Origin: an uncultured virus (IMG/VR IMGVR_UViG_2846613599_000004)
Lineage: Duplodnaviria; Heunggongvirae; Uroviricota; Caudoviricetes
Virus record (IMG/VR): IMGVR_UViG_2846613599_000004
Length of the DNA stretch: 20,000 bases
Direction: 5' to 3' (one strand)
The notes below the pieces were generated by a model. That model did no database searches, was not told where the DNA came from, and saw only the letters and a list, made by a program, of their open reading frames with translations. Below, one piece after another: positions 6,210-18,402 of the stretch (its first letter is position 1; every line of letters begins with the position of its first letter). The translations under genes and the position numbers were made by a program.

Positions 6210-6268
6210 TACTCCGTCGTTATCTGTATCAAAAAAGGGGAAACCGTATATTCCCCTTTCCTAAATCA

Positions 6269-6296: not shown

Positions 6297-6632
6297 TCAG
6301 ATTGTTAACTCAATTTGATCCTGAGCCTCGGTTACAGCCGGGGCTTTTCTTTTTGGTGTTCTGATATGACCGAGCATCTGAATCAGTGCCCTGGCCTCAT
6401 CACCCTGCAACACAACCATGTCTTCCCCGCCCTCATATTCAATTGCCGCCAGTAAACGAGCGCAGCGCTGTATGAAGCTGAGATTTTCTTTATGTTGTGG
6501 TGACTGCCACCGGGAGATTTGAGATTCGTGTATGCCCGTTCTGTGCGCAATTTCACGCGCGCCGGTTGAATGAATCCCTTTGAGGATTTTTGTCTCGATT
6601 TCACGAAACTTGCGTTCGTTTGATAATCCCAT
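6297..6632 (-). CDS. cII: CII transcriptional activator
   Basis: IETKILKGI...REIAHRTGIHESQISRW HTH and ARLLAAIEY; located between cro and O. Confidence 0.88.
   Translation of the reverse strand: MGLSNERKFREIETKILKGIHSTGAREIAHRTGIHESQISRWQSPQHKENLSFIQRCARLLAAIEYEGGEDMVVLQGDEARALIQMLGHIRTPKRKAPAVTEAQDQIELTI
6324..6354 (+). terminator. oop-like intrinsic terminator (t0 equivalent) within the cII 3' end
   Basis: AGCCTCGGT-TACA-GCCGGGGCT hairpin followed by TTTCTTTTT, antisense to cII. Confidence 0.65.
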
Positions 6633-6725
6633 AATTCATAATGTCCTTATTGAGATACAGTTATTCACTCACTTCCTGTGAGGTGGCTGTGTTGAAAAAA
6701 TGTAATTTGGTGGGTTCTGCCTCTT

Positions 6726-6786
6726 CGGTACATTGTCTCCTTGGAGATACGCCGCCCGCCCGACAATATGCTGTGCCGTTCAGCTA
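6726..6786 (-). ncRNA. putR-like cis-acting antiterminator RNA
   Basis: Minus strand reads TA-GCTG-AAC-GGCA-CAGC-ATAT-TGTC-GGG-CGGGC-GGCG-TA-TCTC-CAAG-GAGA-CAAT-GT-A-CCG. Same architecture as the 9694 element; lies immediately after cro. Confidence 0.75.
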
Positions 6787-6802: not shown

Positions 6803-7030
6803 TTATGCAGCAAGTTCAGGCCAGTTTTTTTCCCAGTCTTCTGGATATAAATGCTGGCGTTTAACTACTGAGTTGCTATTTTTTTCAATGAGCACACATA
6901 GCTCTGTGCCGAGTTTTGTGCCCTTTGAAATTGCCTTTCTCAGGTATCCGATAGTTGTTCCGCATTTTTTTGCGAAAGACTCTTGTTCTGATACTGAGAG
7001 CGCATTTAGGAAAATCCGTAATTGTTCCAT
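6803..7030 (-). CDS. cro: Cro-like repressor (YdaS family)
   Basis: FAKKCGTTIGYLRKAIS HTH and DWEKNWPELAA end; divergent from cI; ATG at 7030 follows AAGGA. Confidence 0.88.
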   Translation of the reverse strand: MEQLRIFLNALSVSEQESFAKKCGTTIGYLRKAISKGTKLGTELCVLIEKNSNSVVKRQHLYPEDWEKNWPELAA

Positions 7031-7061: not shown

Positions 7062-7118
7062 AATATACCTGTAGGTATACATTTAATCAATACCCGTAGG
7101 CAATTTACCGAAAGGTAA
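7062..7118. promoter_or_regulatory. oR operators and pR
   Basis: WTACC-N4-GGYAW palindromes at 7065-7078, 7090-7103 and 7105-7118. Minus strand has TTGATT (7085-7090), 17 bp, TATATT (7062-7067). Confidence 0.85.
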
Positions 7119-7138: not shown

Positions 7139-7837
7139 ATGAATGCTGAAAACGATTTATTTGAGAAAAGAAGGCAAAAGCTATCCGAACTTGTTTCCCA
7201 ATATGGGACGCAGGAAGAGTTTGCTCGCGCTATAGGGAAGGACAAATCTTACGTATCCAGAATGCTTTATCCTCCAGAAAAGAAGGGGTATAAGCGTATA
7301 GGGGACAAAATGGTTCTTGCTATTCAAGCCGCTTTAGGTCTGCCTCATGGCTGGCTGGATGGAATTGTAGGCACGGATATTCCTGCACCGTCGCCAAGTA
7401 CATCCTACAAAGTGGAAATCCTCGATGTTGAAGCCAGCGCTGGCCCTGGCGTTATGGTTTTAGATGATTTTATTGAAACCATCACGGCAATTGAGTATTC
7501 AGCGGAAGAAGCCAAGAGGTTGTTTGGCGGAAGGCCAGCTGATACCGTTAAGATGATCACTGTGAAAGGTGACTCTATGGCTGACACATTCGAGCCACGC
7601 GATCAGATATTCGTTGATATGAATGTTAACCATTTTGACGGTGATGGAATCTATGTTTTCATACTGGACAATCAGCTCTATATCAAACGCCTGCAAATGC
7701 AGCACAAGCGCCTTGCTGTGATATCAGATAACCCAAAATATGAAACATGGCACCTGCATGAAGATTCTATTGATGGTGTCTTCATACAGGCTAAGGTACT
7801 CGTGAGCCAGTCTATTAAGTATAAATTCCACGGCTAA
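7139..7837 (+). CDS. cI: CI repressor (HTH plus S24 autopeptidase)
   Basis: QEEFARAIGKDKSYVSRML HTH, ASAGPG cleavage site, VKGDSM catalytic Ser and YIKRL catalytic Lys. Confidence 0.95.
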   Translation: MNAENDLFEKRRQKLSELVSQYGTQEEFARAIGKDKSYVSRMLYPPEKKGYKRIGDKMVLAIQAALGLPHGWLDGIVGTDIPAPSPSTSYKVEILDVEASAGPGVMVLDDFIETITAIEYSAEEAKRLFGGRPADTVKMITVKGDSMADTFEPRDQIFVDMNVNHFDGDGIYVFILDNQLYIKRLQMQHKRLAVISDNPKYETWHLHEDSIDGVFIQAKVLVSQSIKYKFHG

Positions 7838-7861: not shown

Positions 7862-7944
7862 GGTGTGGTTGACATTCTTTACTTCAATATTTCTTGGTTT
7901 GCCGCACAAAATTGATAATGACACTACAGGTGATGTCATATAAT

Positions 7945-8250
7945 ATGTCCAGAACACAAGATGTAATCAACGAGCTAGTTAAGCGTAAAAAGTCCATATC
8001 TTGTAATGGCAGCAAAGGATTGTTGTTGTACTTAGAATCCTTGGGGTTTAAGCACAAGGAGGGGAAGACGGTAGGTCACAGAATTTTCACCCACCCTCAG
8101 CTTAGCTCTATATCTGACTACAAGACTCATTCGGTAGATTGTGGACACAAGCCGAACAGAGACATGAAGCACGCGTACATAACAAACACATTGCGCGTAC
8201 TTAATCAGTACAAGGATGAACTAGAGGAAATTGAAGCCAATGACAAATAA
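7945..8250 (+). CDS. hicA: HicA family mRNA interferase toxin
   Basis: LESLGFKHKEGKTVGHRIFTHP carries the HicA G-x-H catalytic His; upstream of HicB. Start may be 7933 or 7945. Confidence 0.8.
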   Translation: MSRTQDVINELVKRKKSISCNGSKGLLLYLESLGFKHKEGKTVGHRIFTHPQLSSISDYKTHSVDCGHKPNRDMKHAYITNTLRVLNQYKDELEEIEANDK

Positions 8251-8818
8251 AGTCTTTGATCCTGAAAAATATACAATATCAGTAAAGAAAACCACCGAAG
8301 ATGGTGAGGTGGTTTTTGTGGCTAGCATCGCCGAGCTTCCTGATATCAGAGAGTATGCAGATACTGCTGACTTCGCCAGAGAGTTAGCAATTGATTCAAT
8401 AGCCACCGCATATGAAGTTTTTGCTGAGCAAGGGATGATTTTCCCTAAACCAAGTGATGACTCTCAAATTGAAAGTGTCAGCGGAAGAGTAACTTTGCGT
8501 CTGCCAAAATCAATCCACGCCAAATGCATAAAAGCAGCGGAAAATGATGGTGTCAGTTTGAATTCATACTTAACAACCTGCATAACAAGCTACTCTGCAC
8601 AGAATGAAATTAAAGGCGAGATTCGCAGCCAGTTCACCCAGGTGAAGGCGCTAATAAAGTCTCACGGCAGATCAGATACCTATAGCGGAAGAATGGTTGA
8701 TAGAGGTGGGAACTCTTGGGTTTCATCACTGGATGCAAAATTTTCTAAAGAGAGTGACACCCTGGAAAGGGATAGTGAAATTCAATTATCTGGCTTTTAT
8801 TCGGAGTTCTATCAATGA
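8240..8818 (+). CDS. hicB: HicB family antitoxin with RHH domain and extended C-terminal tail
   Basis: FVASIAELPDI..YADT..A..LA..I...FPKP (partial RNase H fold), SGRVTLRLPKSIH...A..DGVSLNSY (RHH), then about 70 extra residues. Confidence 0.88.
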   Translation: MTNKVFDPEKYTISVKKTTEDGEVVFVASIAELPDIREYADTADFARELAIDSIATAYEVFAEQGMIFPKPSDDSQIESVSGRVTLRLPKSIHAKCIKAAENDGVSLNSYLTTCITSYSAQNEIKGEIRSQFTQVKALIKSHGRSDTYSGRMVDRGGNSWVSSLDAKFSKESDTLERDSEIQLSGFYSEFYQ

Positions 8819-9255
8819 GTATCATGTCGTCAGTCATATTAAAATCCGCAACGGTCACTTCTAACACCATGGATTTTGTAAGGCCAGATATTGATGTCGC
8901 CAAAGTGGCTGTAAAATTTAAACTGCACAACGCCTTAGAAGAAGATGAAGAGTGCAAATATTGCAGGTTAGCATTCTCCGGTGATGTTATTGGGAAGTTA
9001 ACCGATGAAGATGAACCTGATTTCGATTTAGTTGACCATGAGTTTAAGTTTAGCATCTCCGTTGATTATGAATTTGAAATCAACGATCTAGAGAAATATC
9101 TATCACTAACTAAAGATGAAAAAGCTGAATTGTGTGCAAATTTAGTTTATCTAGATTTTAGAAGGCGCATGACGCTAAATGCAAATAACATAGGGATAAG
9201 CAGCTTTAGAATGCCGCTATCGTTAATGACTCTAACAAAGAAATCAGAAAAATAA
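8815..9255 (+). CDS. SecB-like chaperone (putative)
   Basis: 146 aa and acidic, with alternating beta-strand patterns followed by LVYLDFRRRMTLNANNIGISSFRMPL, resembling the SecB helix and G.P...LP end. ATGA-coupled to hicB. Confidence 0.65.
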   Translation: MSIMSSVILKSATVTSNTMDFVRPDIDVAKVAVKFKLHNALEEDEECKYCRLAFSGDVIGKLTDEDEPDFDLVDHEFKFSISVDYEFEINDLEKYLSLTKDEKAELCANLVYLDFRRRMTLNANNIGISSFRMPLSLMTLTKKSEK

Positions 9256-9620: not shown

Positions 9621-9662
9621 TTACCCGTGGGTATTTACATTTAAATTACCCGCAGGTATATT
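9621..9662 (+). promoter_or_regulatory. oL operators and pL
   Basis: TTACCCGTGGGTAT (9621-9634) and TTACCCGCAGGTAT (9646-9659) have the same 25-bp spacing as oR. TTTACA (9634-9639), 17 bp, TATATT (9657-9662). Confidence 0.88.
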
Positions 9663-9693
9663 TATATCCATCGAAGGGCAACCAGAGATAACC

Positions 9694-9769
9694 ATAGTCG
9701 AACGGCGCGACTTTAAACCATGCGTCGGGCACTCGGCGGAACCAGCTAGTTAAGTGGTCAATGAGATGC
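9694..9769 (+). ncRNA. putL-like cis-acting antiterminator RNA
   Basis: ATAGTCGAACGGCGCGACTTTAAACCATGCGTCGGG closely matches the HK022 putL 5' half as I recall it. It is followed by a stem with a GGCGG/CAAT internal loop and a bulged base, about 25 nt after the predicted pL start. Confidence 0.85.
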
Positions 9770-9827
9770 ACTACAGATCACTTATGAAATACCAATATTT
9801 GCATAAGTCATTTGATAGGAGCGGCGC

Positions 9828-9980
9828 ATGAAAACGAAAGTTACCTGTCCGTTGTGTCTGAGGACATTTGACCCACGAATACCGGTAATGCACATCAGCA
9901 AGTATCACAAAGGCGCTACCGATGCTCAGTTAGCAAAAATAAGGAATGTTCGCAGAAAGGCAACATACGCAAGCAGCTGA
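9828..9980 (+). CDS. Small C2H2-type zinc-finger protein, 50 aa (not in ORF track)
   Basis: AGGAG RBS; MKTKVTCPLCLRTFDPRIPVMHISKYHKGATDAQLAKIRNVRRKATYASS. Confidence 0.65.
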   Translation: MKTKVTCPLCLRTFDPRIPVMHISKYHKGATDAQLAKIRNVRRKATYASS

Positions 9981-10065
9981 GAATGAACCGCAAGCCGATT
10001 ATGCCGAACGGTGGCATTACGGCCAGAGCATGACCTGATGGGTTGTGTGAGCGCAGATACTAATT

Positions 10066-10090
10066 ATAGCCCATTCGGTGAGTGGGCTAT
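10066..10090. terminator. Strong hairpin, probable terminator between convergent units
   Basis: ATAGCCCATTC-GGT-GAGTGGGCTAT, 6 nt past the stop of the 10097-10600 gene; U-tail is poor. Confidence 0.5.
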
Positions 10091-10096
10091 GGTGAG

Positions 10097-10600
10097 TTAA
10101 CCAGACTTCAACTTAGAAACCGGAGATAAATATACCGAACCACATGAATTGCATTTAAGGGTAGCAATATGAGCGCCAATACCAGGGATAGTTTTAACCG
10201 AATTAATGCTAAGTGCAGACGCCTTTCCAGACTCATAACAGTGAGCACAAAAGTAGGAATATTTGCTAATGGAGTTTTCGGGAAGATTCTTACGATAGAT
10301 CGTCGTACCAAGCATAGGGCTCCACGCTTCATAATCAACGGACTCTCTAAGCCATTTCTCTTTGTCAGCATTTTTTGCATTTGCTTCACTGAGAGACTCC
10401 TCAAGGAGCATTATCGACTTCTGCTTCTCATTTATGATCTCTAAAAGCTTAGTGTTTTCCATTTGAATATCATGAAGTTTTCTATTTATTTCATAGACTG
10501 CATTATCAATAACAGCCTGATTTTTAGCGTCATTAACGGCGTTAAATAGATTAAGGCTTTCTCTGATAGCAGCAATAGCCGCTGGAATTTCACCGAACAT
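10097..10600 (-). CDS. Accessory protein: coiled coil plus zinc ribbon
   Basis: N-terminal heptad region, CAHC and CNSC pairs; AT-rich and opposite to the pL operon. Confidence 0.75.
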   Translation of the reverse strand: MFGEIPAAIAAIRESLNLFNAVNDAKNQAVIDNAVYEINRKLHDIQMENTKLLEIINEKQKSIMLLEESLSEANAKNADKEKWLRESVDYEAWSPMLGTTIYRKNLPENSISKYSYFCAHCYESGKASALSINSVKTIPGIGAHIATLKCNSCGSVYLSPVSKLKSG

Positions 10601-10700
10601 AATTAACTTCCATATTGTGGGGGTGAGTTAATTATAACTGTTTTCTGTTGTGGGGGCACGACGGAACCACCTCGCCTGATGTGGTTAAAAGCAGGCATCC

Positions 10701-10893: not shown

Positions 10894-11280
10894 GTGGAAG
10901 ATAAATTCTTTTATCGGTACTCAGCGATTGATTCAGAGGACGGAATTTATCTTTCGCTCAGTACATTCAAAATGGTTCGGGAAACGCCTTGCTACTACAT
11001 GGTAAGGCAGTTTTTTGTAACCAACGGTGGATTTAATCTGTTTTCAGGCAAGGAGCGCCGCGTGCCGAAATCTGAACTGCAATGCAGAACAATTTGCCAC
11101 ACAAAGGAACGGGCACTACATCAATTCAGGATGCGGCAAGAATACAGAATTGAGCATGCAAAACGGAGTGAGTTTATAGCCGGAAGATGCCTTGATTTTC
11201 TCCAGGCCAATAATTTCATACCTACCGCCGAATACACATTAATACTCGGCAGGTCTGGTATTAAAGCACTTGGATACTGA
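10894..11280 (+). CDS. Hypothetical phage protein
   Basis: GTG start after AGGAG; the upstream part of the tracked ORF overlaps the RNA structure and is probably not translated. Confidence 0.65.
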   Translation: MEDKFFYRYSAIDSEDGIYLSLSTFKMVRETPCYYMVRQFFVTNGGFNLFSGKERRVPKSELQCRTICHTKERALHQFRMRQEYRIEHAKRSEFIAGRCLDFLQANNFIPTAEYTLILGRSGIKALGY

Positions 11281-12928: not shown

Positions 12929-13063
12929 ATGACTATCAATCAGAACGTTTTCCGTCTGGCGCAAGCACAGGCGCGGGTAGCTATACGCCAGAAATGCGAT
13001 GACATCTGGTGGTTAGCAATGGAATTACTCAGAGAAAGTTACGGGAGGCAGGAATGCAGATAA
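12929..13063 (+). CDS. Kil-like cell division inhibitor, 44 aa (not in ORF track)
   Basis: MTINQNVFRLAQAQARVAIRQKCDDIWWLAMELLRESYGRQECR; size, AQ..A..A.....W..A pattern and position upstream of the recombination genes fit Kil. Confidence 0.5.
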   Translation: MTINQNVFRLAQAQARVAIRQKCDDIWWLAMELLRESYGRQECR

Positions 13064-15211: not shown

Positions 15212-16003
15212 ATGACTGCTTACTATAACGAAATCGAACCGTTCGCTGCTCAGTGGTTACGGAATCTCATTGCTGCCGGTCATATAGCGCCGGGTGTAGT
15301 GGACGAAAGGAGTATTGAAGATGTCACACCAGATGACTTACGCGGATTCACACAATGCCACTTCTTCGCCGGTATCGGAGTGTGGTCACTCGCCCTACGC
15401 CGTGCAGGATGGCCGGATGATAAACCAGTCTGGACAGGAAGCTGTCCGTGTCAGCCTTTCAGCGCGGCAGGCAAAGGAAATGGGTTTGCTGACGAGCGGC
15501 ACCTTTGGCCTGCATTCTTCCACCTCATCAGCGAGTGCAAGCCTGGCGTTATCTTTGGTGAACAGGTTGCAAGCAAAGACGGCCTCGGATGGCTCGATCT
15601 TGTACAAACTGACCTGGAAGCAAAGGACTACTCCACAGCAGCGGTCGATTTATGCGCTGCGGGCTTCGGTGCGTCGCATATCAGACAGCGATTGTTCTGG
15701 GTGGCCGACGCCGACAACCAGAGGCGGAAAAGACTGCGGAGATGTGAGTCAGTCATTCTTCCGGAAAGACGGGAGGATGCGGAACGACACGCTGTACCGC
15801 CAGTTGTGGCTACACATGTTTGGTATGGATGGCAGGCCGTCACGGGAGCAGATAAAAACTCTCGAATGCTTCCACCTGACTTTGGCGAGAGAACTGATGA
15901 TGCTGCCGGTCGAGTGGGAAAACTCCGCGCCTACGGAAATGCCATCGTCGCGCCGGTCGCGGAAGAATTCATAAGGGCTTATATGCTGATAACAGAGGAA
16001 TGA
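15212..16003 (+). CDS. DNA (cytosine-5) methyltransferase, main chain
   Basis: FFAGIG (motif I), GSCPCQPFS (IV), GEQV (VI), HIRQRLF (VIII) and LRAYGNAI (X); no motif IX is evident in this frame. Confidence 0.9.
   Translation: MTAYYNEIEPFAAQWLRNLIAAGHIAPGVVDERSIEDVTPDDLRGFTQCHFFAGIGVWSLALRRAGWPDDKPVWTGSCPCQPFSAAGKGNGFADERHLWPAFFHLISECKPGVIFGEQVASKDGLGWLDLVQTDLEAKDYSTAAVDLCAAGFGASHIRQRLFWVADADNQRRKRLRRCESVILPERREDAERHAVPPVVATHVWYGWQAVTGADKNSRMLPPDFGERTDDAAGRVGKLRAYGNAIVAPVAEEFIRAYMLITEE
15315..15974 (+). CDS. Nested +1-frame ORF, putative second methyltransferase subunit (true start uncertain, possibly 15480 or 15486)
   Basis: Stop-free for 219 codons inside the MTase gene; contains WPTP..R..KD and ARELMMLPVEW (motif IX-like). 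Confidence 0.55.
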   Translation: MKMSHQMTYADSHNATSSPVSECGHSPYAVQDGRMINQSGQEAVRVSLSARQAKEMGLLTSGTFGLHSSTSSASASLALSLVNRLQAKTASDGSILYKLTWKQRTTPQQRSIYALRASVRRISDSDCSGWPTPTTRGGKDCGDVSQSFFRKDGRMRNDTLYRQLWLHMFGMDGRPSREQIKTLECFHLTLARELMMLPVEWENSAPTEMPSSRRSRKNS

Positions 16004-16982: not shown

Positions 16983-17007
16983 AAACCCTGCATTAGCAGG
17001 GTTTTTT
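16983..17007 (+). terminator. Intrinsic terminator
   Basis: AAACCCTGC-ATTA-GCAGGGTTT followed by more T. Confidence 0.85.
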
Positions 17008-17030
17008 ATACCTAAAATTCAGAGTTAACC

Positions 17031-17662: not shown

Positions 17663-17873
17663 AGCAGTAACGACCTTGGTTTTAATTAATGGCGAAACAT
17701 ATCAAATAGCACTACCGAAAAACATAGTCGCGCTTCAGGCAAAACAAGCATTAGCAATGGCTCAGGAATTTGGCGGGATAATAGTTCCTTGTAATTTCGC
17801 CAGCATCAAGCCAATGAAGGCAGATGGAATACCGTTCAATATAAATGACAGCAGGGGTAAGAATGAAAACTGA
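17649..17873 (+). CDS. Hypothetical protein
   Basis: Tiles between NinX and the adenine methyltransferase. Confidence 0.6.
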   Translation: MKKVEAVTTLVLINGETYQIALPKNIVALQAKQALAMAQEFGGIIVPCNFASIKPMKADGIPFNINDSRGKNEN

Positions 17874-18402
17874 CTACGGCGGGAGCACAACACCAAAGGA
17901 ATTGCGTGACTTGTGGCAAACTCCCCTACCGTTATTCTCAGCACTGGACGCTGAATTCGGTTTTTACCTTGATGCCGCCGCCGATAAAAATAATACCCTC
18001 TGCTCTCATTACCTCACCGAAAAAGACAACGCATTAAACTCCGCCTGGCAAAGCTACGGTTCTATATGGTGCAACCCGCCGTATAGCGACATACAGCCGT
18101 GGGCACGCAAGGCAGCAGAACAATGCAGGGTGCAATTGCAGCCGGTCGTGATGCTTGTTCCAGCGGATACTTCGGTGGGCTGGTTTAAATCTTCGCTGGA
18201 TACCGTTGATGAGGTCAGATTCATTACCGGCGGCCGGATATCGTTTATTAACGCCGGTACAAACAAACCGGTGAACGGAAACAATAAGGGTTCGATGTTT
18301 TTAATCTGGCGCCCGTTCACCCAGCCCCGACGGATAATTACCACAGTTAACCGTGATGACCTGATGGATATCGGCAACCGGTTACTGGAATCTCAAATCT
18401 GA
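17863..18402 (+). CDS. Phage N6-adenine DNA methyltransferase (Dam family)
   Basis: DLWQTP, F.LDAAA, WCNPPYS, VMLVPADTSVGWF and GRISF motifs. Confidence 0.92.
   Translation: MKTDYGGSTTPKELRDLWQTPLPLFSALDAEFGFYLDAAADKNNTLCSHYLTEKDNALNSAWQSYGSIWCNPPYSDIQPWARKAAEQCRVQLQPVVMLVPADTSVGWFKSSLDTVDEVRFITGGRISFINAGTNKPVNGNNKGSMFLIWRPFTQPRRIITTVNRDDLMDIGNRLLESQI

Follow-up and report, generated by a model that had tools for sequence, protein, structure and literature searches.

How does RNA polymerase reach the distal genes of a lambdoid prophage whose early operons contain terminators and in which no N gene is recognised? The question is raised by the stretch of DNA analysed here (20,000 nucleotides, hereafter the window), which according to its gene content is the early region of such a prophage. 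Q, the nin genes, P, O, cII and cro are located on the minus strand, and cI, three added genes, pL and a recombination-to-integrase operon are located on the plus strand. Lysis, head and contractile-tail genes are present on the same contig beyond the window (28 selected proteins were scanned). In the case of lambda N/nut and P22 gp24/nut, antitermination requires the N protein, boxA/boxB and Nus factors. HK022-type put RNAs are expected to give read-through in cis with purified RNA polymerase, and the rpoC-Y75N mutant is expected to lose it; further put RNAs were reportedly described by King in 2011. Antitermination by put RNAs is established (PMC6256539; also the accessible parts of PMC9378689, PMC8632103, PMC12315714 and PMC4496710).

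The preliminary description of this DNA placed a two-domain RNA just past pL. The RNA, a putL antiterminator, is present at 9694-9769 (+), about 25 nt from the predicted pL start, and A1 in the HK022 numbering corresponds to position 9694. Nucleotides 1-36 are identical to HK022 putL (GenBank; L001) at 34 of 36 positions, and both differences belong to a single compensatory pair, A5U/U17A. The claimed match of the 5' half, except for a change from AGACG/CGTCT to AGTCG/CGACT, is thus confirmed, and alignment shows that the A5U/U17A pair is common to HK639 and phiEt88. The runner-up 36-nt match on both strands of the 4.1-Mb host genome has 23/36 identities. Using the window segment 9560-9830 as the query, 26 of 50,697 phage records were matched. 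The best of the 26 align on the put segment and include the annotated putL of HK75, O276 and HK639; mEp390 was not among them.

The accessible text on the cryo-EM structure of HK022 putL (PDB 7XUE; PMC9378689) reports that 3-7 and 15-19 form a duplex, that A9 pairs with G35, that G42-U65, G43-A64 and C44-A63 are non-canonical pairs, and that U68 is bulged. According to the same text, changes at 3-7, U28, G35, G45 and A64 inactivate putL. The stem I pseudoknot of the window putL (9696-9728, +) pairs as in this model. The helices P1 (9696-9700/9708-9712) and P2 (9703-9707/9723-9727) have five of five pairs each, and the pseudoknot pairing (3-7/15-19 and 10-14/30-34) is complete. A9, U28, G35 (9728), G45, A64 and the 3-7/15-19 helix are all retained. 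The -10-like sequence at +23 to +28 (9716-9721, including U28) is also retained.

Stem II (9729-9769, +) was delineated from the fold, from covariation of the lower stem in 53 putL rows, and from an upper helix that is invariant in four clade variants. The description of this stem as rebuilt holds: the lower stem differs in sequence from HK022 with its pairs intact (6/6), and the core is kept. One A (9766) is bulged in the lower helix, one pair away from the HK022 U68 register. The non-canonical core is located at 9735-9738/9759-9762. The core pairs G42-U65, G43-A64, C44-A63 and G45-C62 on a paired lower helix are present in putL and also in the second site described below; the core motifs also formed part of the pattern by which relatives were collected. 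Above G45-C62, a 2-nt 5' bulge (9739-9740) and a 4-bp upper helix (9741-9744/9755-9758) are predicted, whereas HK022 putL has here an internal loop with unpaired G60-G61. The upper helix is unchanged in the four clade variants, which differ in the loop. G60-G61 is found in 46 of the 53 putL rows (script count, with three rows read by eye) and not in the window putL; the remaining rows are the four of the window's clade and three others that are non-canonical by eye. In the window putL, G60 is retained but predicted to be paired in the 4-bp helix, and position 61 is U, as in HK022 putR. Positions 59-61 differ from HK022 putL, and the strand containing them is central to the binding interface according to the accessible text of PMC9378689. 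Positions 60-66 are identical to those of HK022 putR, which itself already departs from the putL-form internal loop 46/60-61.

The second site, overlooked in the preliminary description, is a putR RNA in the cro-cII gap at 6725-6785 (-, read 6785-6725). HK022 has putR in the equivalent position. The site lies about 270 nt past the inferred pR start, and the HK022 pR-to-putR spacing is likewise about 270 nt in the accessible text of PMC9378689. The two stem I helices have 4/5 and 5/5 pairs, with compensatory changes relative to the putR of HK022, HK75 and phiEt88. In its lower stem II an A is bulged, with the same register as in HK022, and the rebuilt upper stem is shared with the window putL. 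The matching putR supports the assignment to the put-type antiterminators.

Relatives were collected with a pattern that gave 76 distinct matches, 53 with putL spacing and 18 with putR spacing; five with other spacings were excluded. The motifs in the pattern are invariant by construction, and some of them are common to the window. Since a joint MAFFT alignment misaligned the two kinds of site, separate models were built. Model R1 contains 46 of the 53 putL rows (the four clade rows, L073, L180 and L052 were left out), and model R2 contains 12 putR rows that are HK022-like and almost identical to one another. In an unfiltered search of the whole window, R1 gave 67.2 bits for putL (E 1e-14) and 26.5 bits for putR, and R2 gave 21.7 bits for putL and 32.3 bits for putR (E 3e-5), the E-values being rough. 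The next-best matches score at most 7.3 bits. Exactly two sites exceed this value, and both are at the HK022 positions. In the alignment of all 53 putL rows, 92% of cells are paired, and two-sided changes are seen in 8 of the 18 pairs; the covariation score was reached by none of 500 shuffles, and slid controls pair at 45% or less. For putR, 16 of the 18 matches were aligned (L051 and L097, with stem I unpaired, were excluded), with 95% paired and two-sided changes in 8 of 18 pairs. Because the relatives are not independent, these covariation figures are not probabilities.

The pL promoter (9634-9662, +; -35 at 9634, -10 ending at 9662) is a consensus match only (10/12) and is the top of 18 promoter-like sites in the window. 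The transcription start is placed at about 9669-9670. The region 9622-9658 contains two oL operators, which are dyads of the form TACC-N4-GGTA (at 9622 and at 9647) and are unlike the HK022-type operators annotated in HK75. On the minus strand, pR and three oR dyads occupy 7062-7117 (-35 at 7090, -10 ending at 7062; dyads at 7066, 7091 and 7106). The cI repressor (7139-7837, +; phrog_4, HTH_3 and Peptidase_S24) is 51% identical to HK75 cI over residues 56-232, and its first 55 residues are unaligned. The genes cro (6803-7030, -; phrog_35) and cII (6297-6632, -; Phage_CII and phrog_191) flank putR. The operator specificity is indeed not that of HK022, as had been claimed, but this is unremarkable, as the put sites of HK639 and phiEt88 are also located behind other repressors. 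In relatives, three operator types are combined with the window's put variant, and the first gene after this put is of two kinds. The non-HK022 immunity is therefore simple module shuffling.

Two hairpins adjoin putL. The 5' leader forms a weak hairpin at 9670-9689 (+; -2.9 kcal/mol, z -1.3), and a similar leader occurs in relatives; a role for it is weakly suggested. An AU-rich hairpin with a weak T tail follows putL at 9780-9808 (+; z -3.9). Its stem is conserved and its loop is variable in L189, L196, L198 and L199, and it is possibly a pause site or weak terminator.

Neither N nor nut was found in the prophage. Profile searches of the scanned window ORFs gave no match to N (phrog_271) or Nun (phrog_5632), and the best six-frame matches in the window had E 1.0 (N profile) and E 0.21 (N C-terminal profile). 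As positive controls, lambda N and P22 gp24 match phrog_271, and HK75 Nun matches phrog_5632. A pattern search of three regions (the pL leader, 9981-10650 and the cro-cII gap) found no boxA/boxB; in lambda and P22, the same search found four of four boxA sites and three of four boxB sites. Both absences in the preliminary description, that of an N-like ORF and that of a convincing boxA/boxB, are thus borne out. A very divergent N or nut could escape the profiles. Two window ORFs were considered and rejected. The 50-aa zinc-finger-like ORF (9828-9980, +; phrog_20899) occupies the usual N/nun slot and matches neither N nor Nun; it is present in four of nine related loci and absent from five, and its Atlas neighbours are unnamed proteins. 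The 91-aa ORF at 10169-10444, faintly N-like by eye, matches no family and is antisense to a real gene.

The whole host genome contains one N-like gene, G000:C9:893-1255 (phrog_271, E 8.5e-11). It belongs to a separate small prophage remnant on another contig (G000:C9:893-3616; L207), in which the N-like gene is accompanied by its own cI and lysis genes; no cro or replication genes were seen there. The gene was thus rejected as a part of the window prophage.

Intrinsic terminators are present on both early transcripts. In the pL operon, they are found at 10986-11016 (+, by terminator scan) and before xis and int at 16983-17009 (+). The latter, named in the preliminary description and overlooked by a simple scan, is real: a 9-bp stem (16983-17004) is followed by a T run (z -4.2). 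The pR transcript has a terminator past putR, in the gap between cII and the replication gene O (6230-6262, -; z -3.3). In addition, a strong hairpin (10063-10090; z -4.95) is found where the reverse-strand gene 10097-10600 ends.

The sequence, the pairing, the position, the lack of N/nut and the E. coli-like target surface together support the earlier proposal of a divergent member of an RNA antitermination system. HK022 put binds the zinc-binding domain of beta' and the flap tip of beta (accessible text of PMC9378689). In the host, beta' 3-118 is identical to E. coli at 115 of 116 positions, with the zinc-binding domain unchanged, and beta 835-954 is identical at 118 of 120. By analogy with HK022, from which folding, binding and read-through are taken over, the prophage very probably uses HK022-type put RNAs instead of N/nut. 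Once cI is removed, each put RNA would fold while leaving RNA polymerase and dock onto the zinc-binding domain of beta' and onto the flap tip of beta. The docked RNA would keep the enzyme in the non-swivelled state and hinder terminator hairpins. Transcription from pL would thereby reach the recombination genes, xis and int, and transcription from pR would reach O, P, nin and Q.

The likeness to HK022 comprises the two sites in the same positions, the 34/36 match of stem I, the pseudoknot, G35, A9, U28, the stem II core and the lack of an N gene, and for putL only, the -10-like sequence. The differences are that HK022 putL is at +1, whereas the window putL follows a leader; that the predicted bulge and 4-bp helix in both window RNAs replace the internal loop; that the lower bulge of putL is one pair over; and that the window has no nun, another repressor and operators, and contractile-tail late genes. 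HK639, phiEt88 and HK75 likewise have a leader before putL and put behind non-HK022 repressors, but keep the canonical G60-G61 upper stem. For HK639, the 16-kb region searched gave no match to putR, whereas the window prophage has both sites. The put sites occupy the same genomic slots as the nut sites of lambda and P22 (the pL leader and the cro-cII gap), with the same job.

The changed positions 59-61 and the shifted bulge A count against put antitermination in this prophage. It is conceivable, though unlikely, that the variant folds and binds polymerase with partial activity (suppression of the nearby pause or weak antitermination), and that internal promoters or an unrecognised phage or host cofactor also serve the distal genes. 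The upper stem II and bulge register unlike HK022 putL and the AU-rich hairpin directly past putL would fit this, as would the U68 deletion in HK022, which abolishes antitermination and spares anti-pausing (accessible text of PMC9378689). However, the bulge position varies widely in natural putL, the same register occurring in 10 of 53 rows, and positions 60-66 are identical in HK022 putR. A common first-slot gene is also lacking, with the zinc finger in four of nine loci and an HNH nuclease in others. Public RNA data, examined in 4 of 24 listed runs, consisted of assembled contigs giving neither strand nor level; none spans putL, and one low-depth contig spans putR.

Very improbable is the explanation that the put sites are relics and that read-through depends on a divergent N/nut of the prophage or on the C9 N-like gene in trans. 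The host does have that gene, and a highly divergent N or nut might evade profiles; but the C9 gene sits behind its own cI on another contig, the boxA/boxB search found its controls and nothing in three window regions, and both put sites are intact and better conserved than their flanks. Chance resemblance or an unrelated structured leader, suggested by ordinary folding energy (z +0.43) and the lack of an Rfam match, has a negligible probability and is refuted by the R1/R2 scores and by 34/36 against 23/36 identities, with two sites at expected positions, and HK022 putL likewise has ordinary folding energy (z -0.68) and no Rfam match. The folding z-score is uninformative as evidence for put, because stem I is a pseudoknot and HK022 putL scores no better. 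Rfam contains no put family.

What appears new among the put RNAs is a small clade, in Morganella and Providencia records, that has the predicted bulge and helix of upper stem II in both putL and putR. The nearest named carriers of the window's variant are such records (L169, L189 and L190), and in the host genus the putL model matches three of nine genomes, including the window's own. Both put sites are present in seven clade loci, with identities to the window of 92-100% (putL) and 95-100% (putR); in the loci that differ from the window, operators, cro or downstream DNA drop to 41-60% identity. The upper stem II of the clade is most likely an alternative construction of the same surface. Adaptation to the host polymerase was rejected as the cause, as the contact surfaces match E. 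coli; it is also disfavoured by L073, which has the same operators and lower stem, yet a canonical upper stem.

A wider proposal, which we regard as doubtful, is that the clade is a distinct put subclass with G60 paired, and that put is a mobile module. The mobile-module part draws on a fusion of stem I to boxA, N remnants, HNH nucleases and put before a lysis module. If the proposal were true, the subclass would have a different grip on RNA polymerase or depend on a Morganella/Providencia host factor; putL and putR, mutually as unlike as the HK022 pair, would both have moved to one upper stem II geometry; and put would have replaced N/nut repeatedly across enteric and bee-gut phages.

The locus offers putL and putR together, with natural changes in that part of stem II which separates anti-pausing from antitermination. 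The importance of single stem II features can therefore readily be tested on it. The put alignment in the accessible text of PMC9378689 has only ten known sequences and no Rfam model detects HK022 putL, so that the put RNAs go unannotated; the 53 putL variants collected here suffice for a family model. Titles and abstracts in the literature searched, to which most subscription papers do not belong, include none that deals with put RNAs of phages from Morganella, Providencia or Gilliamella, and an earlier listing of the variant is possible. Among complete E. coli genomes, 133 of 5426 carry putL, which also occurs in Morganella, Providencia, Erwinia, Pantoea, Brenneria and Gilliamella records. 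A metagenome scan gave three stretches, one known variant and two likely chance matches.

Across 97 distinct putL neighbourhoods, of which 90 extend 2 kb or more downstream, the inspected N-profile matches are C-terminal fragments without the arginine-rich motif, or Nun. Such fragments are found downstream of putL in 10 of the 97, four of which seeded the profile; they include L057:1894-2178, L094:2778-2978, L003:2156-2299 (phiEt88) and L192:5607-5753, and some are split in two frames. They represent decaying N or a retained mini-protein, and the window has none. In the Mixta records, at L179:4993-5085 (+) and L181:4944-5036 (-), an intact put stem I is joined to boxA-like sequence that replaces stem II. 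The L179 and L181 loci, which gave no N match, look like put/nut recombination joints. In L186 (Symbiopectobacterium), a full putL is in tandem with a boxA-like sequence about 70 nt upstream.

The first ORF past putL was inspected in 29 loci and is an HNH endonuclease in at least 8 (L169, L172, L175, L187, L190, L191, L192 and L200); it may home near put and help put to spread. L170:263-6012 (Winslowiella) has the order cI, pL, putL, holin, endolysin and a spanin-like gene, then a large ORF that by eye resembles a bacteriocin, followed by a small one, and its put apparently serves a domesticated lysis/release module. Clade-type putR sites with stem I only, stem II being replaced, are present at L073:6430-6460 (+) and L205:1714-1771 (+). 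The put-like RNAs at L093:586-653 (-) and L159:297-363 (+) are divergent, and their stem I shows compensatory changes; in the L093 phage region, cro and cII are not recognisable by eye. Bee-gut bacteria also carry putL (Gilliamella records L173, L180 and L188), and stem II is degenerate in L188 and L052.

Within the window, cI is followed at 7894-9255 (+) by a HicA-like ORF (by eye, without family match), an antitoxin of the HicB family and an ORF of 146 aa, which may be the chaperone of a toxin-antitoxin-chaperone defence module; HK639 carries three similarly sized genes at the matching place. A Kil-like 44-aa ORF is located at 12929-13063 (+; phrog_2180, weak phrog_2055), and the pL operon holds two DNA methyltransferase genes (15212-16003 and 17845-18402, +).
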